DNA from: Psammoneis japonica
Lineage: Eukaryota
Length of the DNA: 64,000 bases
NCBI GenBank assembly: GCA_008632985.1
Contig: QPGO01000021.1
Location: forward strand, 124,001-188,000
Direction of reading: 5' to 3'
Positions 1-64,000 of this stretch are shown piece by piece; within the stretch, counting starts at the first letter, position 1; each line of letters opens with the position of its first letter. A program made the position numbers and the translations under genes. Under the pieces are notes generated by a model. The model was not told where the DNA came from. It worked only from the letters and a program-made list of their open reading frames with translations, and ran no database searches.

Positions 1-2329
1 AAGTGTCCATTCGAGAACACAAATGGTGAGTTCAGGCATGCAGCAAATCAGTCTTGTGATGCTCTGCACACTGGCAACAGGTGACAACGTCCAAGCTCTG
101 TTGCTCCAATGCCAACCTGTCAAACGCAGCCCAAAGATGCCAAGGATGAAGAGTCTGATGACACAAGCTGTCCTCAGGCACAGCAAAAAAGCACTGCAAT
201 TCATGTTGCCATGCCATTTTCATCACCTGTGTTTTTTGACACAAATCTGGCTCTGGTGTCTGGAAAAGGAGCCAGCCAACAGTGTTCTCTCTCCTGCATT
301 GCCAGCGACAAAAATTTGAGGTTGGGTGTTGTTGGCGACATTCAAAAGCTGCCCATTGCAACTTGCCACCTTGGAATGATGCCAAGACGAGTCGTCTGTT
401 GTCCTGCAGGACAATTGTTTGCCATCAGGTGTCTGGAGAGCAGAGTGTGGGATGGAGGGGCCATGGATGCGGGGGCAACTTTGGCAATTGCGCTCGATTC
501 CTTGACAACACTTCTTTTGAGGACATTCATTGGTGAGACTTTTTGCAATGGAATGAGGACGCATGATGACTTGACACTTCCATTGCCCTTGATCTAACTT
601 CAATCACCCTCACAGTGCAGGGTTGACTTGGGTCCTCATGAGTCAACAGTTTCCATGGCAAAGGCGAGCCTCACAGAATTGAGCACTTCCAAAATGCCAG
701 GCATGATGCGACCAGCTCCACAGGCTCCAGCCGTTTCTCTTGGTCAGCATGGCATGAAGACCAACCTGCAAACAGATGGATCCTGGTGTGCTCACATTCC
801 AATGACCAAGGCATTGTTGGCGGCACTGGGCCATGCGCCAAGGCAAACTTTTGGTGCATGGTGGTGTGCATTCTGTGTCAGCTTCACCAAGGAATGGCTC
901 TTGCATCTGTCAATTCCAAGACACAGATTTGCCAATTTGTGGATGACGGCACAGGCACTCCAAAAATGAAGATTGTGGGGATTGGTTGTCATGATGCACT
1001 TGACTGTTGAGTCACATGGTTCCTCCTTTGAAACTCCTTCCATCACAGCAACCAGATCATGCCTCAAGGACAGACTCCATCTTTGTCCAATTGTGAGGTG
1101 CTGGGCATCAATCAATGTCCTGCTGGCCCCAAGTCCTTGGTTGAGGGTGACAGAAGAAAGAACCCACTGCCTGAACATGGAGGCCAACAGTCTCAATTGG
1201 AAGTCAGACACTGTTTGGAGCCATGGATGGGAGCTTGGGTGCAATTCTTGGACCAGACAGATGGACAGCTGTCTTTTTTGCAGCTTTGGAAAGAGCCATG
1301 GAATGGATCACTCTTGCTGCTGGAGACTTTCATTGTTTTGAATTCCAAATGTTTTGAGCAGAAAAGCACATTTGTCCCAGCCATGGGTTGTTGATGGAGA
1401 TCTCATTGAATCTTTTTGGAATTTTGAAAAGGCTGCAATGGAGGCACTGGTTCAAGAAATGAATCAAAAGTGGGAAAGTGAGGAAAACTTTGCCCCTTCT
1501 GGCAATGCAAGAGGTGGCAGAGTTTTGATTGATCTGGGAAACACAATGTCTGATGGAGAGGATGAGAACACTCCAGCCAGTGGTGCCGCATGCTGACTGC
1601 AGATGACGTGTTGGTGATGGCAGACGACAAGACAATGCTCCTCTAGAGTGGGCACCGATGAGCAATGGCAGTCAAAGTCCAAGCATTTGCTGGTCAAAGC
1701 AGCAGTGATGCACCCTTCTGATTTGGCTGAGCTTTGGTGCAAAGCTTCCAATGATGTTCTTGTGCATCTCTTCCTTCTTTGCCCAGTGCTTTTGGTTTGA
1801 GTTGGCATCCAAACATTCCCTTTGTTCACACTTGGCTGCAACTGCTGGTGTGCGCCGTCACTGCATCAGAGGCATTGGCACTGCAATGACGTGTGGAATT
1901 GTGTGACAAAGTTTTTGTGACACATTTGCAATGTGTCACTGCAATGTTGGAAAGTCAGTTTGCAGCCAGAGGTCTGTCCATCAAATGTCATGTGCAATTT
2001 GTCAACAATTTAGTTGTGCCTTTTTCACTGCTTTCACTTGACTGAGATGTTCACCTGATTGCCATGTGCCAATGAAATGTTGCACTTTTATGGTGGCTTG
2101 TTCTGTTCACTGACTTTTGCAAACATCCCCTTTGCATGAGAAATGCCTTCCACCAATGTTGCAATCACATGTTACATTTGTGATGCAGCGACCCAATGAT
2201 TTGCTGTCAACTGCCATTTTGACCACATGCATTTGCTCGCTGCTGTCTTGAACAAAGCCAACGACACCTCTGCCTTCCAAGAGTCCCATGACTGTGGTCT
2301 TTTTCCGATGAGTGTTTCTCTTCTTCCTG

Positions 2330-4250
2330 CTCTTCCTCCTGCTCTTTTCCTTTGACAGCAGTCTCCTTGCATGGCCGTGGTGCTCATGAGGCAGTGGCAA
2401 ATCTCATTGCCCAATGCCAAAGCTGCTCATGGGAGGAAATTTGCAAGCACAACACAAGCTGGTTCTGTCCACGAGTTCAGTGGAAAGTTTCACAATGACA
2501 ACTGCACTTTCGGCAGGCTGTCACAATTGCATCTTTGGGATTCGCACAAGCAACCTGCCTCACTTTCTCAATGTTTCTCTTGATCCGGTTGTGTGCAGTG
2601 TCAATGTTGATCTCAACATTCAATGCAACACATGTCGCCATTGCGGCAAATTCAGGCCAATCCTCCAGCTCCTCCAGACGCAACAGGAGGGACAGCAGCC
2701 ATGGAATGCTGTGGCCTGTGTTGCTCTCTTCTCAATTGCAACCATTGCCATGGCCTTGTGTGGTGGTGACAAGTTGCAAGGAAGAGTGCCATTGGCATTT
2801 GGTCCATTCAAGGCTGAAATTTGGTGGGACATCTGTCCTTCCCCTTTCCAGCTCCAATCCATGCAAACAACACATGATGACTTGACGATGGTGGCTTCAG
2901 GACACAGAGACCCCATTTTCATCATTCTGTCAATGCAGCCATTGCATGCTTCTGTCAAGTTAATTTACATCAGTGGATTTCACTGTTGCTGCAGCAGCAT
3001 CATTGTTTTTTGGTTCAATTCAATGGTGTCATTCACTGCTGTGAAAATGACACGGCGAATCAAGGGACAATCAATAAGATCTGGTTTGCAACCCGGTGAC
3101 CCACCCATCATGTCTGCTGTGTTTCAATTGGTCCACAACATCAGCATTGCAGCAAAACATGAGTTTTTGACATCATGCACAGAAAACAGGGCTCACCTCA
3201 CATGTGATGCATGTGAAGGGAAGAAATTTTCAAGATTTTCCCTTCTCATGCAAGGCACGCGTGCTTCAAGTGCATGCCCACACATGGAGAGAACACAACA
3301 TGGTGCATGTGTTGCATTGCAACAACTCATTCATTGGCATCAGATCTTGTGGAACAATCCTGAGATTTTGCCTCAACGATTTCTGCGCAAGATCCAGAGC
3401 ATTTTGCCACCAACCAAAACCTCACCACCGTCAGCCTCGCAAAAGCAGAACAGATTGGTTCCACCCACATTGCACCCCACCAAAAAGGTGACTGTTGTCC
3501 CATGGTGGGGGCTGATGGCAGGGTGGGCAGACAATCCTTTGTCTTCTGGCAACCAAAAATGCCAAAATTCTCATGGTTTGGCCAAACTTCATTGAAAGTG
3601 TGGTGAAAATCACACCAAAGCACAATGTCAAGGTCGTTGCCTGGGCTTTCAACAAAGCAATTGGTTGGGTGGTGGTCAGCAAAAAAGATCTGGACATCTG
3701 AGATTTTCCGCTTGTGGTCCATGCCACTGTCGTGTGATGCATCCAAAGGCTTGCCATTTCATTCTTTGTGGGCATCTGACTTGGCATCACTGAAGTGACA
3801 AACAATTTGCTTTCCATCGTGAACACAAAAAACAGCCCACATGTCAAGGAACTGAGTGGCAGCTTGGTGCAATGGCTTGCAGCCAGCAAAACAATGACCA
3901 ACAGGAAACATGAGCTTGCACTTTGTCTTGAAAGAATCAAGAGACTGTTGGTTCTCATTGGCATTGGAGATGTCATCTTCTGCAGGAGCAAGTTCATCAA
4001 TCTCTTGTGCAAGATTGTCAGTTGCCCAGTTTTTCTTGAGAAGCTCTTTGCTCTGCTCCTCAAGAGGGCGTGCTTCAGAATGAGCACCATGGTTGTCCAT
4101 GAATGAAGGCATTGAGACCTTTTGAAGAGAGGGAGCAGGTGGGACAAGTTCTGGAGCTGGAGAACTTGTGCTGTTGTTGTTGTCAGCACCACTGTCATCT
4201 CCATTGTTGTCAGAAAGAATGCCGTTGCCATTGTTGCTTTCCAACAGCAG
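2330..4250 (-). mobile_element. Degenerate Mutator-like (MULE) DNA transposase relic
   Basis: Minus-strand fragments: FPVGHCFAGCKPLHQAATQFLDMWAV (N-terminal part), KRKISDVQIFFAD...VLWCDFHHTFNEVWP (IFAD and CDxxH-type MULE catalytic region) and a possible SWIM-finger remnant near 2380-2450. Many stops and frameshifts. Confidence 0.6.
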
Positions 4251-7200
4251 GTTTTCTTGGCCGCTTGTTGTGGTGTGGCCATTCTCAAGGACTTGTGTTG
4301 CTCTGCAAGGACAACAAGCAGCAAGTTGAGACCAAGTTTGAAACCATTGAGTTTTGACTGCAATCTTGGTCCTTCTGCAGTTTCGGTGTCATGTGACGGT
4401 TTGACACCATTTGTGACTTGTGCCAAGAAACCAAATTCCAATGAACAACGTGGTCTCAATTCTTTGAACAAGGTGACAAGAGTCACAAGTCCTCCAATGC
4501 AAGAGGCAAGACCACCTTCAAGAGCAAAGTTCCTTGATTGCCCAGTGCATGTGCACATCCTGAAGTGTTGACAAAAGTGATGAGCTCATGCAGCATGACT
4601 GGAGCTGCAATTTCTAAGGTGACTGGCATCACACATCATCTCAGTTGAAGCCAAATGTTTGGTGCCAAATTGAAAAGCACAAGAAATGCCGTGCAAGTGG
4701 TCACTCCACAACAAAGCTCACAGTTTCTCAAAAATCCATGGCTTTTAGAACTGCACCCTGGATCAACCTTTCCAACCTGTCTGAGAAGCTCATTGAGTGC
4801 TGCAGCTCTAAATGCCATCATGTCTGAGGTTCAAAAATTGCTCATGTCTCAGCACATGAATCATCTTTTCAGGGATTTCACTGTGTGCACAATTGCTGGA
4901 TGCCAACAGACCTCTGTGGGCAGAGTGTTGCAGCGTCAAACTCAGTTTAAATGATGAGGGAGTCCAAGTCTTGGGGTGGGAGCATCACAGTGGAGGAGAA
5001 CTTTTAATGTGACATGGGCCAACAACATTGCAGGTGGAGCAAGTGCACACAAAACTGATGCTCATGTTCAGTCAATGGCGGAAAATGAAAAAACACTGTG
5101 TCTCTCCTTGTTGCCATTGAAAAACATTCTCAACAAAATTGCTCACCTTGACATTGGTGTGTGTTGATGTCACAGCTTTGGCACAAGGTCAACTGTGCCA
5201 TCCAGCAGTTCACACATGTCGTGTGAGGAGGTCACATGCCACATTGCCCAGCAGTGCAGTGTGAATGACAGATGGAGGGCCAGGATGGAATGACACCATG
5301 TGGGCAGGGGTGGCTGGGCTGGTTGCAAAGGCACAGCAAGCATGCATGTTGCACAGTTTGGATGAATTGTGGTGAGGAAGCTGGCTGGCAAGGGATCCAG
5401 TGACCCCAAGAGGGAGAGGCTCTGAAAGCCCCATGTGTTGAGAAGGGGTGGATGCATGGTGTGCAACAATGAATCAAGGTGATGAGGTTTTGGTTTGCAC
5501 CACAATGGCTGATGGGAAGACACCACATGGTGGGGGCATTTCACACAGGAAAAGGCAGCATGTGCATGTGGGAGTGTTGAAAACAAACTTCAGAATTCCA
5601 AGGAGGTGCAAGTGGCATGAGCAATGAGCACAGGGCATTGCTGATCACCAAAAATGAGGAGACATGCAAAAGTCAACATCCAAAAGCACCAAAATGGAAA
5701 AAGGTGTGTGCCTGCATTGTTTGGAGAAGACATCATTGTGGGACTTGATTGGTCTCATGGTTGCCATGAAATTTCCTCTTGGCACTTGTGCACTGTGCCT
5801 TGGTGCATGGGTTGGCAGCAGCAGGAGCATGCAAGCCAAGAGCTGAGTCAAGAGGCATCATTGGGATGGCTGCATTGTTGCAGCCAGCCAAGTGTGAGCA
5901 GCTGGGAAGGTGGCGCAGGAATGAGGCACACATCAACATCAACAGGGCATTCAGGGAGCAAGTGAGAAAGAAGATCAGCAGGCTCATGATGGGCTGCTGA
6001 CAAATTGGAGCAAAGACCAGCAAGCAGCCAAATTGTTCCGAGAGGGCACAAAGTCCATCAAGCACAGCATTCAAGAGGGCTGTTTTGTGCCCCAGGAAAC
6101 AACAACAGAAGACATGATCTCCACAGGGGTCAGCAACTCTGTCACACACATGGGGTGTGGAGTGGGGCCCAGCTGCTCAGCAGAGATCAGGAGTTGAGCA
6201 TGCTTGCACTCAAGCATGAGGTGGAAGCAGATGAAACACATGCTGACGTGCAACAGAGTGCACCAGATTCAAATTCCAGCACTTTTGTTGTGCACCATTC
6301 TGCGTGTGACTGGCATTGAGGAGAACCCAGGAGAGTGTTGCTTGTCAACCCTTCAACCGTCACAGAGCAAATCTCTGTGGGTGAAGATTTGCTCCACTTG
6401 AAGATTTGTGATGTGTCGTGCACTTTTGGCTGCAATGACATCATGAATGCAGCACAAAAATGTTGCATCACGCACAATCTGCATGAGACACACCACATGC
6501 ACTCACTTGTGAGATTGCTCCAAGGGTGTGGTGTCATTGCTCCATTTGTGGCAGCAGCTCACAACAAAGCATGCAAAAAACCTGGTGTCAAAGAAAGTTG
6601 CTAAAAGGGCTCCCCCAGATTTTTGGTGAATGCACGTGAATGGGAGCTCTTCTTCTCTCAGAGTCATTGCACAGAAACTGTGTGCCGGCAACAGAGCACC
6701 AGAAACAGTTGTCATCAGTCTGTCTGCCCATCCATGCATGAATGTCAACTTCTTGGGAAATCAACATTGAAACATCATCTGATCAGGGGCACTGCTCTTC
6801 ACCATGTAAATCAAAATGCCCCTGATCACATGACACATTTCAATTGAGTTCCCACAAAGTTGGTGGCTCCAGTCACCCTCTCGCATGACATTGTGTGCAT
6901 TTCTGTGCGATTTGGTGTTTTTCCTTGTGCAAAATGTCAACTGTGACTCCAGCGACATTGCCAAAACAAAATTGCACAAATTGCTGTGCATGTTTGAAAG
7001 CACTCCATTTGCTGCATTTGTGATGCAAGCAAGATTGAAGGGTTGAAAAAAAGCAAAAAAAAGAGAGAAAACTTGGCAAAGACTTCATGTCATGGCTGAG
7101 GAACAATGACAAGCTCACAACCCGATCTTGTTGCTCAACTTTGTGCCAAAATAAGCAAAATGAACAGTGCAAAACTTCAAGTGCCTGTTTGACTTTAAAT

Positions 7201-7979
7201 CAACAGAATCCAAGTGAGCTGTGTGCTTCTTTGTGTGCCAGCTCCACTTCAACACAAAGACAGCCAAGTGCTTGGCAGCCAGATTTTGACAATTCCAAAA
7301 ATGGGTGCAAGCTCACCAATGCTTTTGGATTGCTTCAAATGTCATTTTCTGATGGCAGCAATGAAGCTGCAAATGACCAGCTGGCACTCAACATCCACTG
7401 TGCCTTGCTCAATGTAAAAAAAGCCAAGCACACATTGCCACAAGTCAGCCACAACAGCTGCGCCAAGCTGTTTGTCTCTCCATTGCCTTGCTTCCCATGA
7501 TGCAGTCACTGACAACTTCAGCAAAACAGGCAATGTTTTTTCTGATGCTGCTGTGTGTCTAGGTTGCAGCTGTTGCCAGGCCGTGACAACTTGCGACTGC
7601 TTTCAGCACCTTGGTGCCTTTCCGCAGGTTCCACCATGAATGCTGGTGCAGCACCTGCCTTTCATGTGAGTGTCACACCTGATGTCATTTGTCCTGACAC
7701 ACCTTCCACAAGAGGTGATGATGTTGCTCTGGCTCTTTGTGCCCCAGCCAAACACATCCAAAATGAAGTCGTGCAAAAAATGATGGCTTGTCCTCCCCTC
7801 CTTTTCCCCTTTTCCTTTTGTCCTGTCATGAGTGTGAAAAATTTGCAAAAGAACTCTCTTTCAAATTGCACCATCAACAAACATTTGTTGCTGAAGGTGT
7901 TCTTTCACATTTTTGGAATCTGAACAGAAATTTCAAGCAAATGACGACAATCATCTGTTGGTTTTTTGCTGAAATGAAA

Positions 7980-8212
7980 GCAATCAAAAATGATTGCCAA
8001 CAAAAAAAGTTTGATTGGCAATCAAATTTTTTGATGACTCATCAAAAGAAAGCACTGCAATCAAAAATGATCAGTCACAACTGAGTCACGAGTTCAAGTG
8101 TGGGTGTTCTGCAAAAAGCTCAAGATGCATTTGACGTTTTGATGCCAAACAAAATTGATTGCCAACCAGTGATTGCAGCAGCAATCAAAAAATTCTGATT
8201 GGCAATCAAAAC
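7980..8212. repeat. Cluster of short palindromic motifs (TTTGATTGGCAATCAAA, TTGATGACTCATCAA and GATTGCCAA variants)
   Basis: Repeated GATTG(G/C)CAA and CAATCAAAA units in both orientations in an A-rich tract. Confidence 0.6.
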
Positions 8213-9339
8213 TGCAACAGAAACATTGAAAACTCACGCGTGCAAAAAACAATGGTCACAATTGATTTGTCAAACAACCCAGTTTCCGTCAACTGCAACA
8301 AACAAAAACATGCGATGATTGAAATTTGTGGACAGCTCAACCTTGTGACATTTTTCAGGCAAACAACAACACGGTGCAATGGAAACAGATGGATTGACAA
8401 CCAACAACTGCAGCACATTCAGGCAAGTTGACAAGAAAAATGGTGCTCTAAAACTTCTCTGTGATTGGTTGTGTCCTGGTGGAATTTTTTGGCTTCACAC
8501 CATCAAGATGAAACAAAAGGAATTGGAAGAAAAAGGTGACATGGAGGGGTTTGCACATTTGCCAAGATTCCAAGGTGCTTTGAAAAAGCCCCAAAACTGG
8601 GAGGTGTGTGAAAACAAATCAAACCATGGCAAATCAATCACAGCCGCCATGGCAACTTGCGTCATTGTGCACAAAATGGATGCTCGTTTCTGGGTGCATG
8701 GAGGTCTGAATGGAAATTCTCCACAAGCGAGAGAGGACAAGACAAGGCAAAAATGATGAAATGACCAAAGAACCCTTCATCAACAGGTGTGAAGCCTCGT
8801 GGAGCAACACACTGGGCAAAGACTGCACCTTTGATGATCACTTTCATTTTGGTCTCCCCACCTTCATGCCACAAAGCAAGATGCCAGAGTGCATTCTTGC
8901 AGGAGTCACACAAAATGCACCCAACCTTTTGGTTCTTTTCATCTGGTGGCATGCTGGACCCACTGGCTGCCTCCTGAAGGAACAAATGTGGCTGATTGGA
9001 GGGTGTCAACATGGTGAAGCAGAAACAGAAACAGAAGAAACGCACTGTTGCACGCCACCTGCATGGGTGCAAGTTCCTGCCATGGATGAAGCAGCCCTTG
9101 TCCACTCATCATGGGCTGTGACACCATGGCAAAAGCAATTGCGGTGATGATGCAACCTGCACCTTGGCTGAAGAAGAATGGTCGATTGCACCTCATCATC
9201 ACTGCGACAAGGACGATGATGCCCAACAGCGATTTCCTCCATTTCCGGCACCACTGGCCTGACTGGAGATGACAGCTCTTCTGACCTCTCCACCATTTTG
9301 TGCATGCAATAATTTTACAATGCCCATGCCAATGCCCAC

Positions 9340-9690
9340 GAAACACAAAAGCAGGTGGAACTCATGCCAGGCGTCTTGAACCACTGCGTGCGGCCTGGGA
9401 CACATGCAAGGCCATTGAGCAGGACTTGTTTTTGCCCACAACTTGCATCACCTGTGAAGCGGCCCTCTTTTCCATTCAAGATGCCAAATGTGTGCTGTGC
9501 CCTTCTTGTCGCGTCGTCAGTCCAATAGTTATGAACGAGGACGGTGCGGTGGTGGTAGGGCCTAGTGAAGTCGAACAAAGAGGCGTTGGTTTGGGCTTAC
9601 ATTTCAACAATTATGTTCGTGGCAAGAAGACATCATGGGCAAGCGTACCCAGCAAGCCCGTCGTCGTCGTTAGTAGGCGGCGTGATACAC
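9340..9690 (+). pseudogene. Pseudogene of a small Cys-motif protein (CxxC...VLCPxCRVVSP...GVGLG), diatom-type hypothetical family
   Basis: Reads LFLPTTCITCEAALFSIQDAKCVLCPSCRVVSP...GVGLG. Frameshifts near 9375 and 9598 (an alternative frame continues TFQQLCSWQ). The 5' part lacks TA and the 3' part retains it. Confidence 0.55.
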
Positions 9691-10091
9691 AATAACACAA
9701 ACCACTATACAAGCAAGGGGCGGTTGTGGTGACGTTCTTTTTCTTCTTTTGTCTCTTTGCATTAGATTGTTGTTTTCTCTCGATCCTCATGCTGTTGGCT
9801 CCCACGATTCATCGTTCCATCATTATGAAAAATTAAAAGAGCAAACTGCAGAGAGAAGAAGAAAGAGCGAATAATATCTTGCTTTGTTTTTGCTCGTACA
9901 CATAGTAACTAATCAGGTTCTACCATACTCGATGAGTTGGAGCTGCAAACAAGGGCGGCGCCGGCGTTGAATGAAATGAACAACGCCTCCGTAGGTAGTA
10001 GATTAAACAAAGGGAGAAATTCTTTATTGTCGTACCATACCCAACATAACAAGTGCACCGCAACCCCCTGGAAAATTTCAATACGAACCCA

Positions 10092-11723
10092 CTAAACAAT
10101 TGCCATCGCGAATTGATCAAATGAGGCATCCATCAGTTTAGTCGCATCACTTTCAGCCATGACCACCTTCTTCCCATGCAAAACATTTCCGGTGAACTTC
10201 TGCTGTTTGTAATCCTTCATTAAATTTGGTGGGACGACAAACACTGCTGGATACGGTGATGTTGCGGAACGGACGGCCGAGAAATATTTGGCCGTTTGGT
10301 GGGCACCACCATTCCTGAGCGGGTGCTCTGTTGAGATTGTCATCTGCAGAGCGTAAACTTGACCATCAGTGTGAAAGTAGAAGGCATCAAACGTTGGGAA
10401 GTTGGTCGTCGTAGGCCAGAGCAATGTTGGTTGCCACCCGTTCCCGTCCGCGTTTCTCTTCCATACTTTATCCAATGGCACCGTGCTCTGGGACAATGTA
10501 TTGCATTCGACCACTTCTGGCTTGCCTAGGGGAGGAATGGAAATATTCGTGGTCTTGCCATCCTTCAAACTGATGTAAGAAAAGGTACCACCCGAGATAA
10601 ATCGCCGCACGGCGTATGCCTCAAATAATGCACCAGCGTAACCTTCGGCCCCCGAGAGAGGTTGGAGCGTCCTCCACGATGATCGCAGCTCTTCCGTTTC
10701 CAAGGTCACGAGCTTTTCTGCCACTTGCTTCTCGGCGAACCGGGACACCATCTCAAAGGAAGGGTAATCATCGTAGAGGAAGCGTCCACCCGCATCCCTT
10801 TTCGGATTCCACCTAACAAGCGAGTGAACGGCTATGCTCTCCTGACTCTTGTCCGTCATTTGTGTCGACAGCATGTTGACCAGCGATGTTGCGTTCACCA
10901 ATTCAACGGCCTCCAAGACCGTCTTTTTCGCCAAACCCTTGTTCAACATATAGCGCACAATCCCATCCATGAAAAAAGAATTCTCTTCCACGATAGTTTC
11001 GTCAACGTCCAGGATTCTTGCCAGCTGGCGTCCTTCGCTCTCGGACCACGGTGGCATATAGAGCACCACATTTCTCAAAATGGCCTGCCTGAGATTCCTC
11101 GTGTACACACTTGGAGAAGCGGCGACGATAATAATGCCGTTAAAATTCTCCAAGCTGAATGTCATGGAGCAGCCGTCCATAAAAATTGCCTCCAGCTTGG
11201 GCATGGCCTTTTGAAGACAATCCCAAATCTGGTCCAACCGTTGGTTTTCGGCAACAAGCTTTCCATCCAACCAAATTGATCCTGTGATTACGAGAGTATC
11301 CATCTTATCACTTCCCTGCTTAGCATTTTTTGTTGCGTGAAAGATGGCAGCGCTCTGCATTCCCTTTCTTCGGAGGACGGCCATGACGTAGGCCATGAAT
11401 GCTGACTTGCCTACACCTGAAGAACCACGTATTTCCACTAAGCGCGTTAGTGCCTCGCCGTCATCTACAATAGCTTTTACCTCGGAAATAACTCGATCTT
11501 TCAAGTCAAGGTAGCATTGTCGAACGTAGCCTTCCTCCTCCACGCCAAACGTGCCACCAGCCGTTTCGCTGAAAGGAAACGTCGGGTTATTGATGGCCTC
11601 CTGGAGAAACGAAATTGGCACGGCATGTTGCCTATGAAGCGGCAGGTGCAATTTACGCCTTTTGGCAGATTCATCTATCTGAGATAAAGTTTTTTGCAAC
11701 GGAGCAAAGATGTTGTCGCTCAT
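10092..11723 (-). CDS. Crinkler/RHS-like protein: P-loop NTPase plus C-terminal PD-(D/E)XK restriction-endonuclease-like domain
   Basis: Intronless 543 aa ORF. Walker A GSSGVGKS, LYMPPWSESE, GIVRY, GALFEAY and NFPTFDAF...ALQMTISTEH are typical of CRN/RHS NTPase+REase proteins. Confidence 0.75.
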   Translation of the reverse strand: MSDNIFAPLQKTLSQIDESAKRRKLHLPLHRQHAVPISFLQEAINNPTFPFSETAGGTFGVEEEGYVRQCYLDLKDRVISEVKAIVDDGEALTRLVEIRGSSGVGKSAFMAYVMAVLRRKGMQSAAIFHATKNAKQGSDKMDTLVITGSIWLDGKLVAENQRLDQIWDCLQKAMPKLEAIFMDGCSMTFSLENFNGIIIVAASPSVYTRNLRQAILRNVVLYMPPWSESEGRQLARILDVDETIVEENSFFMDGIVRYMLNKGLAKKTVLEAVELVNATSLVNMLSTQMTDKSQESIAVHSLVRWNPKRDAGGRFLYDDYPSFEMVSRFAEKQVAEKLVTLETEELRSSWRTLQPLSGAEGYAGALFEAYAVRRFISGGTFSYISLKDGKTTNISIPPLGKPEVVECNTLSQSTVPLDKVWKRNADGNGWQPTLLWPTTTNFPTFDAFYFHTDGQVYALQMTISTEHPLRNGGAHQTAKYFSAVRSATSPYPAVFVVPPNLMKDYKQQKFTGNVLHGKKVVMAESDATKLMDASFDQFAMAIV

Positions 11724-11885
11724 GATGCTGTCGTAACAACAAGTGTGAAAGGTGAAAGTGAAGATGACAACAGTGGCCGGTCTGGGTTTGTCTTCTGCTC
11801 TCTGGCTCTAGAGAGTGGAGCTGTGTAGTTGGTGTTGTTTGTTGGTTATGGTTTGGGGGCGAGACGCGAGACGGACTGCAGTGGA

Positions 11886-11930: not shown

Positions 11931-11969
11931 TTCAACCTCATCATTTGTTTTCACCCTTTGACACATGGC

Positions 11970-15709: not shown

Positions 15710-15740
<31 letters not shown>

Positions 15741-22575: not shown

Positions 22576-22610
22576 AGAAGAGGTGGCTGGACATTGACGA
22601 AGCGGTTGGT

Positions 22611-53384: not shown

Positions 53385-56300
53385 AGCTACACAGGTAGAG
53401 TAATGCTATAGGAGGCAGTTTACAAAGTTGCGATAAAGTACAGGGAACTCCAGGAGCATTGAAAATGTTTTGGAGGATGCTGTGGGCTCAAAGGGACAAG
53501 AGCACAAAGCCGGTGGCGTCTGTCGACAATGCTTCCTTGATTGTTTGACAAATGCAAAGCCCAAATGTGCTGGATCAGCACAGGCAAGTCCACAAGTTCT
53601 GAAATTAGAGTGTTGCCACTCTATGAGGTGTTGGAAAGCCTTTTGCAAGCTTTGGCTGTCATGGAGAAACCACGAAAGCTCTGGAAGCTGTGGACTGCTG
53701 GTGTGGGGATGAGATCTGATGGCAATTGTGCACTGCCATGCCTCTGCAGATCTGAGAGCAAGTGAGATGGGGCCCTCTCCCCTCACTGCAGGCCAGAGCT
53801 GAAAATGAGAACAAGTCAGTTGTCTTTTCAACAAGAGCAAGCGGTGCCTTCCTGTGTGACTCCATTCCTGCAAAAGGATGAGCAGGAGTGGAAGCACAAG
53901 AGCATGAGCATCATCAGAGTCTGTGACTCACCTTGAGGGCACAACTTTGCAATCTGCGGTTTGCACTGAGGGTTTTCCCAGCTGGGCTGAAATGGCAGGA
54001 ATGATTGGGTGATGAAAGCTGTCCAACAAATGCTGCAATGACAAATCAATGGGGAGTTTGGGAACAAATTTTTGCTCCTTGCCATTTACAGGCACAACCA
54101 AGGGTTGGCACAATTGCCAGAAACTGTGGTGTCACACACTGCAGTCAACAACAGCTGCAGTTGCAGGCACTGACCAAACAATTTCAGTTGCAAATGGGGG
54201 CCAATTTGCAAAATGGACTTTGCAGCAGTTCTGTGACTGCCTCCCTCCCACACACTCCACACTTGTCTTTGCCACTCTCTGTTGCAACTCAAGAGTGCTG
54301 TGCTTTTGTTTCATCACCTCATTTGTTTTCCATTTTGCAGTTGTCCAGCAATTGCTCACACAGATTCTCTTGAGCAATGCACCATGACTCCTCTGCTTTC
54401 ACTTGATTTGTTGTTTTTGGCGAACGCTGTTTTTTCCATGTCATTTTTTCTTGCTGACTTTCCCCCATTTTGGCACACAGTTTTGCATGCAAAACTTGTC
54501 AAAAACAACAATGAAACAAAGACAGCAAAAACAACACACTGTTGCTGTGCAAGATCTGTCTCCCTGGAGTTGACTGGGGCAGACAGGAGCCCACATTGCT
54601 TTCAAGGCACACTGAGACATTCTCTGGCACAGCTCCACCCAATGTCACATTGCTGTTGGCCCTGGTTTGATGACTTGACTGTGCTTTTGTTTCTGACAAC
54701 ACAAGAAGCACAGTTGACATGGCTTGTGGTGTGCAGTGGGCATGTGGGTGGGGAATGACAGGGGGCCATCAATGAGCCAATTAGAAATCCCTTTCATCAG
54801 GCAAAGCTTGATTTGTCAAGAGTGGTCATCCTTGGCTCAAGAAATTTCTCAAGATCTGCATCCACATGGGATTTCTTGTCCTTTGCAGCCGCACTTGTTG
54901 CAAGTTACTCTCTTTTCCTGCTGCAGAGCTCAGACTGAGGTTTTGGCTTGACAGATCTCCACATTGCTTGGTTTGCAATCCCACCAACAAATTCTGCTGT
55001 GCAACAGCTCTCAACTCTGCTGGAGCCTTTCTCTTTTCAATTCAATGACTGTTTTGAAGGAGGAAGTGCACGCAGCTTGCAAGCCCCCACCCCATGGTGG
55101 AAAAAAAGAAGATGCCACATCTGGGCTCAAAGCCTGCAACTCAACACCACAAAGCTGACAACAGTTGCCTTGTGACTCCCAAATGATGAGGCAGGGGCAA
55201 AGGCTTCCTGGCTGGTGAAAGCAGCAGCAGAAACATGAGAAAGCCCAGGAAAATGCCAATGAGTTGTGGAAAGAGCTTGAGAGTCAGACATGGCAGCTGA
55301 CTTGAGTTCAAAAACAGTGACACCAGATGAGTTGGCCAAGTTTTGCATCATGAGGCATGGTGCAAGAGCATTGTGAGTGCAGTTTGTTGCAGCACAACTT
55401 CCAATGTCCTTTTTGAAAAAGCAACACAAGTTGACTCCACATGATGACAAAGACTGTCAGATGGCATTGGCATTGTTGAAAGGATTGGAAACAGTTCAAT
55501 GGAAAGTCTCTCCAATTCTCATGGTGGGCACACATGACAGTGTTTTGAGGGATGGTGCACACATGTGGCAATGAATCCCACCAGGTTGCAACAGTTGCAA
55601 CATGCAACACCATGCAACAGGGCACGACAATTTTTTTTTTTTTTGAAAAGGTCCAAGAGCCTGACCAACTGATCTGCAAGCAACCTTTCTTGCTGCTCAC
55701 ACTGCATGTCCACAACAGCTGGCAGAGAAGGAACAAGAGATGATGAAAAAATGGGTGGCTGAATCACACAGAAGCTTGCACTTTCTGCACCTGACTCTGT
55801 TGTTGAGAACTTGAGTTTGCTGGCCAGAAGCACCACCATCAAATGCACAAATCTCTTGAAGAGCTTTTCTCTCAAAGTGTGTGAGAAAACCTTGACTGCA
55901 CATGGGTTGTTTCAAAATGTCCAACAGGGAAGTGAAGACCAAATGATTGCATCCAACTGGGAAGCACAGGCCACATGTGCCAATCTTGCAAACAGCAAGG
56001 TGCAGCTGTCAAGTCAAATGATCCACATCCATCATTTGAGATGGAGGCATTGTGAAGATGCCATTGTCAGATGCACAACCAGCACTTCACTCAAAAACAT
56101 TGCACCCAGGGAGTTGAACCATGCAGGTTGGGAAAAGACTGTTGCAATTGCTGGTGGGAATGGAGCATTGTAAAATCTGCTGGAGTGGCAGGAACTGGTC
56201 TGATGGTGCAAATGCAATGATGTCTTCAGTGGTCAGAGCAATGTTGCAAGCTCGCAAGCTTGCACCCTCTCCTTGGGTGTTGAACATGGTGCAGAAAGAG

Positions 56301-57099
56301 TCTGGATTGCTTGTGCTCCATCAGACCAAGGAAAGAGTGCTGCAGCTCACTTTGCAATCCACAGAAAGCACAACTTGGCTCTGGAATGATCTCTCATGAT
56401 GATTGCCACAACCACGCAGAATTTCCCAGGGACTTTGCCAATGACTGTGCTTGAATTGTGCAGCATTGGAGCAGTGCATGTCAACAGCACTCTGTGAAGT
56501 GCCAGCAGTGTCTGAAAACAAAGAGGGGGGGGGGTGCCAAATTGAGTGCCACAGCAGTCAATGTGGTGAGGAAGAGTGTTTGCATTGCTGCTCACACAGC
56601 AACTGTGGGCTGCAGGCCAATGAAGATGCCAAAAGCTCGCAAACATGAGATTCTCAAAATGGATGCTTTCAGGGGGGAAGCTCATCCAGTTCTCATCATT
56701 GACAAGTTTCACTGCAACACTGATGAAAACGCTGTTTTTGCACAAACTTTGATTGGGCATGTTGGCCACAGAAGTGGTTGACTTCCTTGTGACACATCAC
56801 AAAAACTGGGCAACACAATTGGTTCTACATGGACAACAAGGGATGCACTGGACACAGATGTTTTGAAAAAGCCCCATGATGGAATGGCTTGCAACGGAAA
56901 GTGGAGGAGTTGTGTGGCTGAGTTTGCTCAGCCTTTGTGTGAGAAATGCAACATCAAGCTAGAAGATGTCACCCTGAACAATTCACAATTTGCCCCTGCT
57001 GGTGAGGTGCAGGAAATCACAATGGATTCACTTTTGAAGCAGCACCACAGCTGTCTTGAGATGGATGGCCATCCAGAAAAGGGTCCAAACTGGCATGCA

Positions 57100-60000
57100 T
57101 TGTTGTGAAAATTGCTGTGTTGAAACCAGTGTCCTTTTCCTGATTCCAAGTGGGCTTGAGGTCATTTTCAATGGAGTGCAGCCAGGAATCTTCTTAACAG
57201 AATGATCCAAGTGGCACGCAGTGTTCAAATTTTCTTTTCAACAAACTCACAAGAAGCACCCCTGGCAGGACCATCAGCAACAAATCACTCAGTGGTGCAA
57301 CAACTGGAGCTGGCACTCCATTTAAAATTGTGTGCAACTCAGCAGCAGATGGAGCATCCAAACCATGATTTTGTAAGACACATTAAATGCAGCTGTGGCA
57401 ATTGATGGCAACCAAGTCACTGTTCTTGTCAACATCCGCTCCACCAAATTCAGTGCACACCCAAGACCCTTGAATGAAGGTGAGTCCTCATTCTTCATCT
57501 GTGGTGACTTGCCAACATGATTGCAAGTTGCGACAGCAGTGTCCTCCAACAGGCAGGAAACCAAAGAAAAACCATTGACTTGTCACAGCATCAGAACCCT
57601 GCAACCCTTGTGAGCATCAGAGCAAGAACACTTGTCACTGTTGGTGCTGCTGGCAGTGCAAAAGAGAAGCTTGTCATCAGCCAAAATGGAGTTGACAAGT
57701 TTCTTCCATGGAATGTCAGCCTCAGGATGCTGGCCTTGGAGTGCATGTCTCAATGGCGACACACAACAGCACAGGATTTTCTTGCCAAAAAACAGCTTTC
57801 AACTTGTGATGTGCAGAGATCACCAGCGGCAACAAAGAAGAGGCAAGACAGACATGCTGATGAGTGTCACAAGCACTGCAATGCCATGACAGAAACAACA
57901 TGGCTTGCTGGCACCAAGTGCACAGAACAAGTTTTGGATTAATTTGTGAACACAAGATGAGCACACAGAGGTCAACTTGTGGACAAGGCTGGCAAAGCAG
58001 CCTGAGAACCAAACGACTCTACATTGTCCAAGACCAGTGTTCTCTGTCAGGTTTCACTGAACAACCCTGATGTGGGGTCTCTTGGCTGTTGCGCCAGGAG
58101 GGCCGCATGACTGGCAGGGACCACAAATGCCACAAGCACATGAAGCTGATAAAACTCACAGTGTTTGCCTTGTTCCCACTCTGGCCATGTGACCAGTTTC
58201 TGAAGCTTTGGATGAGCAAGATGATCAACAATTGCTCCTTCCTTCTCCTTGGCAATTGCCACAGAAGAGCTGATTGCATTGTGGTTGTGTGCACAAAAGT
58301 TGTTTGCAGGAACAGCTGGCTCCAAAAAACATCCTTGGGATGGATGAGACAGCAGCAGCCCAGCAAACATCCTTGAGAGGAATGAGCACTGAAGGGACAT
58401 GAGCATCTCTGCCACTGCATCTGGTTGAAACAACTCACTTTCTTCAGGTGCACTTGAGTTGCCAGGAGTCCAGCCAGGTGCTGCACCCTGGCAAAAAGCA
58501 ATCTGAAAAGTTGGCTTCTTGTCACAGAAGACTGACAAAGCTGATCTTCTGCATCAGGCAGTGAAAACATCTCTTGTTTTGCAATGGACACCATTGCAGG
58601 CACTCGCCATCTTGTTTTGCACAGCCTTGAGGGATGAAAGCAAGTGAGAAGCTGTGCTGCCTTTCTTGATCCACAATGCATGGATGCAATCCTGAGGCAC
58701 ACACTGCAAAAATCTAAGGCCACCACAGGTCAAATCCTTGGGGGCACACTTCATTGCACAAATGACTGTGTGCTGTGTGCAGTGTCCAGTGTGCACAAAT
58801 GGGCTGACAGAGCAGACATGAAAGCTGGTGGGCTGTCTCAGACATCTCAACAAAGTTGCAAATGTGCAACACATTCCACAAAGGAAACACATCCACAGAC
58901 ACTTCTTCATTCATGCCTTCATCAAAATGAATGTGTTTGGTTGTCTTAATTTGTTTGGTCGCAGGATCACATCAAAGAAGATTCTTCATGGCAACAGGCA
59001 AAAATCCAAGGAATGTGCACCCTCCCAAGTTCCAAGAGCCAGTCTTGAGCATTGCAGATTTGCAGGATGTCTTGTTGGTGTGCAAACCCTCACTTGGCAA
59101 CCAAATGTCTGCAGAGCACTGAAATCTTTTGCCTTTTCAGTGGCAATGGCAGCTGTGGCAGAGTCTTGGTCCTTCATTGGAGTGGCATCCTCAATCTGCA
59201 GGCAGTGAGAGAGAAGGCATGTGGTCAGAATCAAATTGTAAAAATGGCTTTAATCAACATTGCTCCAACTGCATTTTCCACCATGAGAAGTGAGCACTCC
59301 ACAGGCCCTCCACATCTGCATGGGTGCACTGGCACCAGAGGAACAGATGCAACCCTGGAAGTCTTTGCTGAAGAGCTCATGATGGCAATTTGGTGAATGT
59401 CTGTCCAAAAATTGGCAAAGCCACTTCAAAGGGCTGGCCTTGTTGCAGACACAAGCAACACCATGAAGCACAAGCAAGTGGCAATCACAAACTGCAATCT
59501 AACATGCTTTGCCATTGAAGCCAACACACAGTCAGAGAGGTGTGGCTCTCATCCTTGGCAGTCTGTCCAGCAAAAGCAAAATGAACAGCAAGACCATGGC
59601 AGGCCTGAGCAGGCATTTGAGCAGAGTGGGGTCCTGCTGGAGTCTCGGACCTGTTTGGCTTGAATGTCAGGCAAACATCACAAGAGCTGGACTTTCATGG
59701 CCAAACTTGAGAACTCCCTTGACGTGCTTGTGTGCATGACACAAACAGGGGCAACCAAGCCATTGACTCCAAAGGAAATGTTCAGCTTCAACTTTTAGAG
59801 AACCCACAGGTGTTTCATCAAGAGCATTGTCAAGAGAGAAACAAGCACCAGAGACTTGAAGGGGCAGTGGAAACAAATCAACATCAAGACAGGTGAGCAC
59901 AGTTTGGTCTCATTGAACATGGATGCAGAGTGCTGCTTCTTGTTGATGTGCTTTTCCTTGATGTCACCATCATGTTGCCATGAACATGTCAAACATGTCA

Positions 60001-60480
60001 AGATGGTCAGCAGCAAAGTCAAAGGGCAGAGGCATCAAAGCATCTGGTGTGGAAACTTTGCCATGGCAAAGAATGCCATGGTCAACCACACAGGTGAGTC
60101 ACCAGTGGTGGGGTGCCACTGTGAGCTGTGTGGGACTTCTGAATGACTTCTGAGTGCACATCTTCAGGTTGAATTCCAGATGCCCACACATGAAGCCTCA
60201 CTCATCAATCAAGGCAGTTTCAAGAGTGTGGCATGATGGAAGGTGCAAAGTTGCCACAGGCACACACAAGCAGCCAACACCATGTTGGATGGTGTCCAAG
60301 CTTTCCACAGCCACTGGCATCTTGACAGGACAAGGATTGTCTGGTCCAAAGGGAGTGCAGTCTTGTGAACAAGATTTGGGTGGTCCATGCAAGATGCCTG
60401 TGCTTTTGCATCAATCTGAGCACAATGAAGAAATTGTTGCATGGCAAAGGATGTGGTTGACAGGCACAACTGGAGTGTCC
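57100..60480 (-). mobile_element. Degenerate Ty1/copia (CoDi-like) LTR retrotransposon pol relic; gag probably upstream to about 62.5 kb
   Basis: Copia domain order on the minus strand: protease AQIDAKAQASC (~60420), pre-integrase LWSQWLGCP..HAHKHVKGV, integrase KASPLKWL, LQTFGCQV..TFLGFLP..CDP..HFDEGMN, and RT KLVTWPEWEQG, VCSSCV, HALQGQHPE and L*QVNG (RQVDD equivalent, 57571-57585). Confidence 0.85.
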
Positions 60481-61238
60481 AAAGTGTCAAATGCAGAGCA
60501 TGGGTCAGGTGCAGAATGAGTTGGTGAGATGTGGACCATGCCACAGATTCTGGGGAGTGCCACTCTGTCCATGTGTTCAAAATCAGCAAGTGCACCATTG
60601 AATGGCAGATCTTGCTTGTCTGCTGCCTGTGGCATCTTGTGTTCAGCATCTTCCCTCTGCTGATTCACACTCACAGGGTCATCATAAGCCACCAGGGTCT
60701 TGATGCCCAGGGCTTCCACTTGGGAACAATGCCAGCAAGCAAAGTGACAAGAAAGAGGCTGATCAGCAGAAGGTGACAAGTCTGCAAGACCCTCTTTCAC
60801 AGTTGCCCCAGATGTCAGTCTATTTGACACGGGAGAAAAGTTGGCAGCCTTGTGTTGACTGTGTTGAAGAAGCTGGCTGAAACAAATGGGGTGGGAGTGA
60901 GACAGCAGCTGCTGGCATTGTTGAGAATGGGACAATCTGCAAAACAGTGGTCACCTTGAGATGATGAACACAGAGGTTCTTCTGAGCTCTGTGAATTGTT
61001 TGTGATTCACATTCTTGAGGAATGCCATCAGCAGCAATTTTGCTCACAGGACTTTCAACAGCACCTTTTGCATGCTCAACAGAAGGAGATGCTTCTTCAA
61101 CTTCAGGAGGGCTTGGCAATGCTGTCAGTGGACAGGGATTCCATGATGCCACAAAGTGGTGCCAACAAAGGAGGTTTCTGCCTTTGACAACAAGCCAGAG
61201 GGCCAAGACTGTGCTGTGGATGCTCAGGAGCAGCAGTC

Positions 61239-61276
<38 letters not shown>

Positions 61277-61277
61277 C
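61239..61277. repeat. (GA)n microsatellite
   Basis: Seen directly in the sequence. Confidence 0.9.
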
Positions 61278-63153
61278 AAGGATGCCGCTGATTTCTTGAG
61301 GGGCATGGGGTGAGAGTGGTCTCAGCAAATTTTTGTGGAGGTGAGCTGATGTTGACTGTGCTTGTCCTCACATGCATCTGCTGCTTCATGATGAAGGCAT
61401 TGGGCACACTTTGCACTGCTGATGACAAAGATGTCAAGCTCACCAGGATCATCTGGAAAAGAAGAATTGCCCTTGCAATGCCACCTGCGTGCAGCTGCAT
61501 GAAATCCATGTGAGAGGGTGTGGCAGCCCAGAATTGTGAGATGATCATTTTGACATCACAGAGGGCTTCATCCAAATGGGGAGGATGTCAAATGGTGTTG
61601 TCTTGAGGGCAGAGCACACCCACCCCTGCAGTGCTGATGAACAACATCAGGGTGCTCAGAGAGTTGCTTGGGAAGATTCCAACCTTCTGAGTGTGCTGAA
61701 AAATGTTCAGCTTCATCTGAGCAAAAGGGGCACACATGCAAAGAAGGGCAAACCATCATCTGGATCATTGCCACACATGAACCCCCAACATCCTCCAGCA
61801 TCTTTTGTGAAACACCAAGTGGGGTGCACACATGTGTCACATGACACAATGTGCTGTCACAAGTCAAACAATCTTGCAGAAAGGCTTTGGCACCTCACTC
61901 AGCACAATCAACAAAGAGGGAGCCATCACTGAATGTGAGATGCTCAGGCCCATCTTGGCAATGCAAGTTGCCAGAGTTGTGGGGGACAAGAGTTGTGGGA
62001 GACAAGAGAGTTTCTCAAAACTGCCTTTCCATTTTCCTTGCACTCATGTCAGGCCAAAACATTTGCTGCAGTCCTTTGGGATTGAACACACACAGCATGG
62101 CAGATGACACTGATGACAAAGTGGAGGCCTTGGAGGGTTGAGCACTGTTCTTTCAATGCCTTGGTCATCATGCATTTAAACTCTTCATCAGAGTCTGGCA
62201 GATGAGCAATTGAAGCCTTGGCAGAGTCCTCAGGATTGTGAGACCTGTGGAAGTGTCTCACAGCAGCAAAGCACATGGAGAGGAAAGATGGCTGTCTGTG
62301 GGAAAGGGGCATCAGAAATGACATCTTGTTTGTCACAACATTGAAAAACAGGGCAAAAATGGAGACAGAAGGTCTGAACATGCATTGTCATGGCAACCTG
62401 ATCCTGTGGCACAACTTGCATCACAGCATTGCAAAGATTGGCATGGTTCAAACAAATCAAAGAGTTTTGAGGGGAACTCTCACATTCAGGAGCTTCATCC
62501 ATGATTGGTCCAACCTGCACAAGGTCATCAGCAAGCATTGCTCAAGGGACAAGGAGATCCTGCTGAATGACCTCATGATGGATGCATGCAACAGCTTCAC
62601 TCTTGAGATCTGGGGGCACAAATTCATTGACAAAGATCTTGGGAGCAGGCACCTCATCCAGACATGGGACATTCAGGTGACAGTGGGCATTGGGCAAGTG
62701 ACCATGCTGGTTGAATTAACCAGAGTCAACTTGATCTTGGTCGACCTGGTTGCGTGGGAAAAAAATCAATTTCCTGCGCAGAGCTCTGACATGCATCATA
62801 GAGTGCGATGGTCGTGCTGATCACAAATCAAGTGAGAAAAACAGCTGTGACATTGACGACGATTCATCAGAGAATCGCAGCCAACACACTCAAAAGACAT
62901 CGAAATGTGCTTGTCAAGAGGAAAGGTGACAGCACACTGCTGCTCATGACCCAACGAACTGCTGGCATCGGGACGATCTAACAACCTCAATTGGGACAAT
63001 GGTGCTCGTGCACTGGATCTGAGAGAAAGCAAGACAGAGAGATCATCGGATCTCTCCAACCCATCTACGCTGGTGTGTCTGTCAAGAGAGAGTGCACTCT
63101 CCAAGTCGGATGTCTGCCAGGATGAGATGGACATGGACAGGATTTCCCAAGGT

Positions 63154-64000
63154 TCACTCTTGGAGCACTTCTTGTGACTGCTTCAACCTTTTCTCAGGAG
63201 GCAAGAAAGGACTCTCGTCTTGGGCTGTAGTTGGAAGCGTCGAAGTTTCTGAAACTGATGATGACCAATTGATGGGATTCTGTCGGAGCAGCTCGTACGT
63301 AACACGAAGGATGTCCCGCTCCTCCACACGGGATGCGCCATTGCAGTCCTCCGTGACAAATTCATCTTCCAAAATTTCATCACCGTGTCTCTCGAAGACT
63401 GAATCGATGCACGTCAAGCAAAACTTGCGGTTCTCCCTGCACACATCAGGAGCCTTGGAAATCGCATCCACCAAGTTCATCATGTGGCTTCTCGTGTCCA
63501 CGCATCCAAACAATTTGCCACGGCCGGCTCGGTTGAGAAGGAGAGCCAACTCAATGTCGGGAACGAAGGTGCCAGTGCAGCAGTCTTGGCTTCCAAATGA
63601 CGCGTGGGAGCCATCATGTTCCAAGTGAACGTCACTGCAGAAATCTTGCATTTCAAGATGAAGTGGTGAAAAGTTCGACTTGACTGTAGAGTCGGATTTG
63701 AGCACAGCGCGAAAGGCGTTCTTTCCCTCAAATGCATTTCTGTTGCCACGAAGATCAAGAGTCTCCAAATTGTCGTTCCTCTTGAGTGATTCTGCAAGCT
63801 GACGGCAGGCTGTCTCACCCAAGCGATTGTGTGAAAGGTCAAGGACCTTGAGGGGAGAGTTTAGCTTCAATGCCTTCGTAACGGGCTTCATGGCGGCACC
63901 TTCTTCATCACAGAGCTTGAGACCGGGCAAGCGAAGCTCGACCAAAGTGCTGTTGACAGACAACATGGTGTCCAACGAATGAAGGAATCTGGCTTTCTGC
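63154..64000 (-). pseudogene. RI-like leucine-rich-repeat protein, 3' part; frame open but TpA-stripped
   Basis: LKLNSPLKVLDLSHNRLG, LKRNDNLETLDLRGN, LLLNRAGRGKL and YELLRQNP. Only one Tyr in 273 aa, with many C/H. The frame is open to the window edge. Confidence 0.7.

Follow-up and report, generated by a model that had tools for sequence, protein, structure and literature searches.

Five TpA-depleted domains in a diatom genome window point to TpA-directed hypermutation of old inserted and repeated DNA

We analyzed a 64-kb stretch of the genome of the diatom Psammoneis japonica (GenBank assembly GCA_008632985.1, contig QPGO01000021.1, positions 124,001 to 188,000 of the forward strand), called the window below; computed values refer to it unless stated otherwise. 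Five domains, together 34.2 of the 64 kb (53% of the window), have lost nearly all of their TpA dinucleotides. These domains are probably explained by a TpA-directed A:T>G:C mutator that acted, together with the loss of methylated CpG, on DNA that is old, silenced, and either inserted or repeated (we put this at about 65%). Judged by its mutational signature, the window would best be classed as a second instance, independent and much further advanced, in another major lineage, of the process described in Bigelowiella natans (Mettrop et al, 2026; bioRxiv 10.64898/2026.01.13.699255). An earlier reading of the same letters, made without database searches (the sequence-only reading), had proposed regional TpA hypermutation and knew of no described mechanism; in this respect it is outdated, as the 2026 preprint describes TpA-specific hypermutation.

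The domains were defined with a two-state hidden Markov model on TA counts, alongside a 1-kb window profile, and agree with the five blocks that the sequence-only reading had drawn by eye, whose borders lie 0.1–0.4 kb from ours. The near-absence of TA noted at the start of the window was also borne out (1 TA within the first 1000 nt), and the pattern as a whole is more pronounced than that reading had put it. Pooled TA-poor DNA has observed/expected (o/e) ratios of 0.05 for TA, 0.22 for CG, 1.83 for TG and 1.80 for CA, compared to 0.58, 0.98, 1.19 and 1.22 in pooled normal DNA, at nearly identical G+C (0.478 and 0.474). In the cores, 6–22 TA were observed where 67–375 were expected at the window's normal rate (Poisson P 1e-21 to 1e-130). 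CpG, which had been treated as unaffected, is co-depleted there (o/e 0.05–0.23). Borders can be abrupt. At the left edge of domain 4, 34 TA occur in 41500–41895, the last dense TA is at 41895 and none follows up to 42300; at the left edge of domain 5, dense TA ends at 53439 and is followed by TA only at 53606, 53622 and 54087. The stop codons mirror this composition: on one strand, the 34.2 kb of TA-poor DNA contains 60 TAA, 23 TAG and 879 TGA; the corresponding counts for normal DNA (26 kb) are 255, 258 and 498. Because TAA and TAG are so rare, most of the window's stop-free open reading frames (ORFs) of at least 70 aa (275/410) lie in TA-poor DNA, which is a trap for gene callers.

Where the missing dinucleotides went is visible in the mass balance. 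As a share of all dinucleotides, TA falls by 3.8% and CG by 4.3% while TG+CA rises by 7.3%, and more than 90% of the lost TA+CG is recovered as TG+CA. When 92% of TA and 78% of CG in normal DNA were converted in a simulation, the 3-mer and 4-mer correlations with TA-poor DNA rose from 0.79 and 0.76 to 0.98 and 0.97. These compositional results indicate that the blocks are the product of TA and CG mutating to TG or CA in situ, not of native composition. A native origin would require a donor, such as a virus or another genome, that avoids TA and CG, or selection against these dinucleotides. Many viruses under-represent UpA and CpG, and the blocks contain no recognizable genes, as might be expected of such DNA. 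However, the same loss is seen in the flank of a host FMO-like gene, copies of one repeat have resolved identical steps differently, the depletion (TA o/e 0.03–0.05, with none of ~360 expected RTAY sites, where R is a purine and Y a pyrimidine) goes far beyond known avoidance, and the blocks are non-coding decay products that present no obvious target for selection. We therefore regard native composition as very improbable. As a control, we considered 248 kb of environmental diatom-like contigs (80 metagenome loci around diatom-like 14-3-3 genes, none from the same species), where 0/387 1-kb windows had the signature; as these contigs are gene-rich, this shows only that the signature is no general property of diatom DNA.

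Repeats within the domains record mutation after duplication. We aligned them in a purine/pyrimidine alphabet, which is blind to transitions, and compared the scores with a shuffled control; the repeats, including several tandem arrays in TA-poor domains, score well above it. A direct repeat found over 692 nt by four-letter BLAST extends to 1632 nt in this alphabet. Of the 407 pyrimidine-purine steps aligned across six repeat pairs, 112 (27.5%) pair CA with TG, a difference at both bases, and 14% differ at a single base, whereas the three other step classes show 7–12% double and 32–42% single differences. Such double differences are what is predicted if ancestral TA or CG was resolved independently in each copy, and four-letter alignments gave the same picture. 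In a dispersed repeat, there are 16 steps at which CG is still present in the fringe partner (12539–12795) but is replaced by TG or CA in the copy within a core (2849–3111). The two copies of the 1.6-kb repeat differ by 413 transitions and 248 transversions (15% transversion divergence) while their TA o/e is still 0.04. The blocks are thus old, and their age explains the lack of surviving protein domains.

A host gene carries the signature next to its own internal control. The ORF at 21227–21778 has 132 homologues in an exhaustive HMMER search (best E 1.9e-18), and four of the top homologues tested are FMO-like (PF00743). With tblastn, homologue residues ~25–220 map to 8406–8958, residues 200–350 to 21227–21568 and residues 345–713 to 21589–22619. 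As the three pieces are collinear and all on the + strand, we consider them one FMO-like gene relic, split by ~12.2 kb; given the collinear homologue coordinates, the DNA in between must be inserted. The C-terminal part lies in DNA of normal composition and serves as the control, although it has one in-frame stop and frame changes. Consensus tyrosines were kept at 0/8 positions in the TA-poor parts versus 5/6 in the normal part (Fisher p=0.003). Four of the eight became Cys (TAY>TGY), three Phe, one Ser and none His, so the earlier claim that conserved Tyr codons read Cys or His stands for Cys but not for His. Its example of GGSYS becoming GGSCS is real: the motif is at 21386–21400, where 74/130 homologues have the consensus Tyr and the relic codon is TGC. 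Consensus arginines were kept at 1/2 positions in the fringe part (the other is His, CAC) and at 3/4 in the normal part. Conserved columns overall have survived about as well in the fringe part as in the control (47/59 and 84/108 unchanged), yet no Tyr of the fringe part has (0/3), implying that TA was lost much faster than the rest. A perfect 20-nt tandem duplication sits at the point where TA starts to reappear; since it contains neither TA nor CG, the signature gives no handle on how old it is.

The contexts in which TA persists point to a preference for the next base. Survival relative to normal DNA is 0.40 for TTAA, 0.21 for CTAA, 0.088 for GTAA, 0.064 for CTAG, 0.051 for ATAA, 0.033 for CTAC and 0.015 for ATAG, and there are no survivors of ATAT, GTAC or ATAC, which occur 75, 90 and 155 times in normal DNA. 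The ten values fit an additive model in which each strand is hit independently, with relative rates of 2.5 for TAT, 2.0 for TAC, 1.4 for TAG and 0.46 for TAA. CpG loss is fastest at TCG and slowest at CCG and GCG. The order of TG and CA along the five cores is random (runs z -1.58 to +0.43; block chi-square 0.96, where binomial = 1), which argues against strand-coordinated clusters as left by editing of RNA or cDNA. As the flank of a non-mobile host gene is also affected, the target is chromosomal duplex DNA in situ. In addition, ordinary C>T change at the abundant CpA and TpG recreates TpA, so an o/e of 0.04 suggests continued removal.

The edges of the domains separate the two losses. Three fringes (12201–13000, 20201–21600 and 62801–64000, the last continuing past the window end) have a TA o/e of 0.09–0.11 with a CG o/e of 0.54–0.85, reaching 0.8–1.4 kb beyond the CpG-poor cores, so TpA loss is separable from CpG loss. 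These fringes are also relevant to an alternative in which TA loss is a by-product of methylation: T:G mismatches from 5-methylcytosine (5mC) deamination would attract repair, of the mismatch or long-patch kind, that uses a Pol-eta-like polymerase. At WA steps (W, A or T), such a polymerase wrongly places G opposite T, which is what happens in the second phase of somatic hypermutation of antibody genes. Excision tracts leaving methylated DNA would fit the fringes, TA and CpG losses coincide in the cores, four of the eight lost tyrosines are A>T or A>C changes as expected from Pol eta, and 7/12 listed differences between the assembly and an independent set of contigs (domains 3 and 4, see below) are at CpG. 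The rest of the Pol-eta signature, an effect on ApA and a sizeable share of transversions, is not seen: AA/TT is not depleted (o/e 1.23 in TA-poor DNA, 1.14 and 1.13 in normal DNA), most of the lost TA+CG turns up as TG+CA, a transitions-only model reaches r=0.98, and in B. natans 230/231 changes were transitions (Mettrop et al, 2026). We consider patch repair unlikely, with a small doubt left by the Phe and Ser at Tyr positions.

Raw sequencing data speak to whether the TA-free sequence is real. One public study contains this sequence, and from its DNA run X1, which possibly derives from the same sample as the assembly, we used word-based contigs (depth ~62). One contig of 4513 nt spans 32249–36758, which takes in the whole of domain 3 with normal DNA on either side, and matches the assembly at 99.8% identity (7 substitutions and 3 indels); two others (40729–42703 and 43587–45443) cover most of domain 4. 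This match excludes a consensus or polishing artefact, though not every library-level problem. All 7 substitutions in the 4.5-kb contig fall within its 2-kb TA-poor part (p=0.003) and are mostly of CpG type. Domains 3 and 4 together have 12 listed differences, of which 7 are CpG versus TpG/CpA and 1 is TpA versus TpG (at 42670). The CpG-type differences may be alleles or miscalls at methylated CpG, and either would point to methylated cores. Heavily modified DNA can give transition-type miscalls in some long-read basecallers, and the 7 CpG-type differences and 3 indels could be assembly errors. Still, a technical origin of the domains themselves, whether by miscalls at modified bases or by consensus error, has in our view only a minimal chance: contigs at a depth of ~60 reproduce 4.5 kb with a whole TA-free domain, the borders are sharp with no shift in G+C, and the discordance between paralogues, the Tyr loss confined to parts of one gene and the 15% transversion divergence of a repeat are evolutionary patterns. 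The same run showed that 42601–43800 in domain 4 is a multi-copy repeat family, with a word depth of 678–2347 versus ~60 elsewhere, many joints and loose ends. A second run, X2, listed as 'DNA?', behaves as an RNA library: in the ABCA gene (30305–31952) it leaves out stretches of 97, 82, 88 and 102 nt that have CT..AC ends, and it reaches a depth of >2000 on the 14-3-3 gene. X2 cover is absent over 33601–36000 and 42001–48000, which does not prove silence.

The TpA-directed mutator could work as follows. Old, silenced, inserted or repeated DNA would be targeted, together with up to ~1 kb of adjoining host sequence. The mutator would hit the A in 5'-T-A-N-3', independently on each of the two strands, and would act on DNA in place over a long time, such that TpA regenerated by C>T would be removed again, and ordinary decay of methylated CpG would be a second process in the cores. 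The putative chemistry is deamination of adenine to hypoxanthine in DNA, then read as G, and the simplest candidate agent would be a deaminase, of TadA/ADAT type or another, that is brought to silent chromatin. Foreign DNA would end up permanently disabled, without TAA or TAG stops, Tyr codons or TATA-like elements.

A route through thymine would produce the same changes. Here, a TET/JBP-type dioxygenase would oxidize T in R-T-A of silent chromatin to 5-hydroxymethyl- or 5-formyl-uracil, which would mispair with G and give T>C. The signature is strand-symmetric, A>G and T>C being inseparable by sequence, and the context series is equally readable as ATA > GTA > CTA > TTA for T on the other strand. 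Thymine-modifying enzymes occur in protists, and in dinoflagellates 5hmU prefers TpA; our literature search returned no paper combining these. Against this route, the window contains no evidence for such an enzyme or base, X1 reads these sites as plain bases, and the B. natans authors favor adenine deamination (Mettrop et al, 2026). We therefore think oxidation of thymine an improbable source, about on a par with patch repair.

The closest known system is the TpA-specific hypermutation of integrated nucleocytoplasmic large DNA virus (NCLDV) and virophage DNA in B. natans (Mettrop et al, 2026). In its mutation-accumulation lines, two integrated viral regions received 231 of the 302 nuclear mutations, at a rate of ~6e-7 per site per generation (~1000-fold faster, as seen in some of the lines only), and 230/231 were A>G or T>C, all 230 of them at TpA. 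The B. natans genome has 124 clusters of TpA-poor, CpA+TpG-rich windows, and an ADAT2-like adenine deaminase was proposed as a candidate (Mettrop et al, 2026). ADAR and tRNA A34 deaminases prefer a 5' U, on which the preprint also bears (Mettrop et al, 2026). Both cases show TpA>TpG/CpA on both strands, in discrete blocks beside normal genes that are non-host or silent DNA in B. natans and putatively so in the window, and in both the genome has TpA-depleted, CpA+TpG-enriched blocks whose genes are mostly unannotated. In the window, A:T>G:C at TpA is seen indirectly, through the mass balance, the correlation of 0.98, the 27.5% discordance and the four Tyr>Cys changes. The two differ in lineage, B. 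natans being a chlorarachniophyte (Rhizaria) and P. japonica a diatom (Stramenopiles), and in extent: the window is near saturation (TA o/e 0.03–0.05), whereas the B. natans NCLDV region has a Rho of 0.45 (Mettrop et al, 2026). Features of the window that are not reported for B. natans are the co-depletion of CpG in the cores, the dependence on the next base, the fringes with TA loss alone and the extension into a host gene; for B. natans, a de novo rate was measured and a viral origin established, while the window is known from its signature. We found no report of TpA-directed hypermutation in diatoms in the literature. Thus, the kind of process is already described, and the diatom instance, the next-base order, the TA-only fringes and the random strand choice are new details.

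Other known processes share parts of the pattern. Repeat-induced point mutation (RIP) of ascomycete fungi is likewise regional and disables foreign or repeated DNA through point mutations, all of them transitions in RIP, which leave their mark on dinucleotide composition and erase sequence similarity, but it changes C:G to T:A, mostly at CpA, creating TpA and lowering G+C. The window shows the opposite (TpA o/e 0.05, CpA o/e 1.80, unchanged G+C). Decay of 5mC accounts for the CpG>TpG/CpA half of the pattern, for the faster loss at TCG than at CCG/GCG and for the CpG-type differences from X1, and diatom long terminal repeat elements have CpG methylation (PMC2806351). It cannot remove TpA, however, and would leave other dinucleotides untouched; the fringes lose TpA without CpG loss, while the CpG component is present at a CG o/e of 0.22. 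The sequence-only reading was therefore right that the process runs opposite to RIP and that CpG decay is insufficient, and its central proposal, regional in-situ A:T>G:C change at TpA, is supported by the paralogue discordance, the Tyr>Cys changes with their internal control, the mass balance and the k-mer simulation. ADAR (on double-stranded RNA) and APOBEC3 (on cDNA) also hypermutate selfish elements with a nucleic-acid deaminase. These enzymes edit the element while it is still RNA or cDNA, not yet integrated, and their edits cluster by strand, whereas in all five cores the order is random and a host flank was hit.

Several points weigh against our preferred explanation, a TpA-directed mutator joined by CpG decay. 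Half of the lost tyrosines are transversions (3 Phe, 1 Ser), which a pure transition mutator would not produce, although these may be older lineage variation. Changes in the FMO-like relic that one TA or CG reversion would explain are not significantly enriched in the TA-poor parts (15/47 versus 5/24 in the normal part, p=0.41). The contexts of surviving TA may partly reflect the birth of new TA and not destruction alone. There is a single TpA/TpG difference among the listed differences between assembly and X1, leaving present-day activity unsupported. Viral or transposon protein domains were recognized by Pfam in no TA-poor domain, and the foreign or repeated origin of the domains is suggested by structure, namely the 12-kb insert splitting a gene, the dispersed and tandem repeats and the high-copy segment. 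The proposed kinship with B. natans is likewise one of mutational signature, and the preprint does not mention CpG (0 occurrences), trinucleotide context or diatoms (Mettrop et al, 2026), its silence on CpG being a further mismatch.

If the explanation is correct, several consequences would follow. To our knowledge, no cellular process that removes TpA from DNA was known until 2026, when the sole report, on a single chlorarachniophyte, appeared, and a saturated signature in a diatom would mean that the TpA process is widespread across the lineages of Stramenopiles, Alveolates and Rhizaria. It would shape a large share of some diatom genomes, as it would 53% of this window. TpA/CpG conversion would also explain why repeat and gene annotation fails in such regions, as illustrated by the repeat recovered over 1.6 kb by purine/pyrimidine alignment but over 0.7 kb by ordinary BLAST. 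The enzyme would be constrained by the next-base hierarchy, the lack of strand processivity, the use of duplex DNA in place, the reach of ~1 kb past the methylated core and the long-continued action. A natural DNA adenine deaminase would amount to a natural double-stranded-DNA adenine base editor, of interest for genome editing. More speculatively, Stramenopiles and Rhizaria could share an ancient, chromatin-guided DNA-adenine editing defense, in which a deaminase with T-A-Y specificity on duplex chromosomal DNA is recruited continuously to silenced insertions, independently of and more widely than CpG methylation; this is a tentative idea that we would not favor at present.

Protein-level searches returned little from the domains. 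Pfam was run on 258/275 ORFs of at least 70 aa in TA-poor DNA (150 + 108); the other 17 are in domain 3, which was instead scanned in six frames with X at stops. No transposon or FMO family was found among the 258, and domain 3 gave 0 Pfam matches in its six frames. Three frames of 20201–22002, searched at E<=1, likewise lacked Pfam domains of transposon or viral type, the only matches in 14 ORFs searched at E<=5 were two at chance level (E 0.47 and 0.77), and a Pfam search of 24 long ORFs gave no transposon or viral family. Word-index protein searches with 3434–4585 (-) and 21227–21778 (+, longer lengths) had no match. Matches below the cut-off were to DUF6163, zf-C4, LRR_4, LRR_6, Anti-TRAP and RAP1. 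As Pfam also missed the FMO-like relic, which exhaustive HMMER proved, these blanks are weak evidence. The sequence-only reading had described the domains as transposon-rich, with recognizable dead transposons in three of them. No transposon domain was found in the TA-poor ORFs; the repeat and insert structure supports the description, and the protein searches do not. Its two named examples, a Mutator-like element motif read as DYYH>DFHH (DFHH at 3600–3611) and a copia motif read as YSSC>CSSC (CSSC at 17146–17157), are present as letters without Pfam family support.

One family reached its curated cut-off, LRR_1, in the ORF at 63157–63999 (21.1 versus 20.6 bits, borderline). This 281-aa LRR-like ORF, on the - strand, is in the 62801–64000 fringe and is cut off by the edge of the window; it could represent another host gene that the TA mutator is invading. 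The coordinates of the main features are collected in Table 1.

Table 1 Domains, relic parts, repeats and inserted DNA in the window.
Feature	Position	Strand	Remarks
TA-poor domain 1	1..9400		TA o/e 0.03, CG o/e 0.20; holds 5' part of the FMO-like relic
TA-poor domain 2	12201..21600		Core 13001-20000 with TA o/e 0.04, CG o/e 0.23; within the insert splitting the FMO-like gene
TA-poor domain 3	33801..35800		2-kb block between divergent ABCA-transporter and subtilase genes
TA-poor domain 4	42001..45000		High-copy segment 42601-43800 and internal repeats
TA-poor domain 5	53601..64000		Core 53801-62600 with TA o/e 0.04, CG o/e 0.05; most decayed block
FMO-like relic, N-terminal part	8406..8958	+	Tyr kept 0/5 (3 to Cys); Arg kept 0/4 (2 to Gln, CAA)
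FMO-like relic, middle part, TA-only fringe	21227..21600	+	Tyr kept 0/3; 47/59 conserved columns unchanged
FMO-like relic, C-terminal part, normal DNA	21601..22619	+	Tyr kept 5/6; 84/108 conserved columns unchanged
Tandem duplication, perfect 20-nt x2	21558..21597	+	Tandem Repeats Finder score 80; accounts for the relic's +2 frame change
Direct repeat pair, 1.6 kb	12948-14550 and 15761-17349	+	64 CA/TG discordant steps
Dispersed repeat copy, core	2849..3111		Inverted partner 12795-12539 in fringe
Putative inserted DNA	8959..21226		~12.2 kb; end of domain 1, normal island and domain 2
Normal island, 2.8 kb	9401..12200	-	Intact 571-aa ORF 10092-11807 (-), not mutated

Within the inserted DNA, the island of normal composition may be a later arrival or younger mobile gene, or an active gene protected by its expression. 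No convincing terminal repeats or target duplications were found around 9.4–12.2 kb. Its 571-aa ORF has no Pfam family; the Atlas groups the product with hypothetical proteins of Crinkler/RHS type (score 0.98), which is no more than a lead.

The normal regions encode a thioredoxin, an ABCA transporter (with introns of 82–102 nt), a subtilase, a 14-3-3 protein and two TPR proteins, and domains 4 and 5 start within ~0.1–0.6 kb of gene ends. The named best matches of the 14-3-3 protein are from diatoms, apart from one record labeled Alexandrium (a dinoflagellate). Normal DNA also has repeats of its own. A 165-nt tandem array (3.3 copies, 94% matches) occupies 46323–47139, the 46323 end consisting of weaker copies, and lies in a 420-aa ORF (46084–47346, -); the encoded protein contains these repeats and belongs to no Pfam family. 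In the TA-rich normal DNA that separates the subtilase gene from the 14-3-3 gene, there are two tandem or near-tandem sets of repeats, one with a 145-nt unit at 39243–39524 and the other with ~200-nt spacing at 39793–40364.

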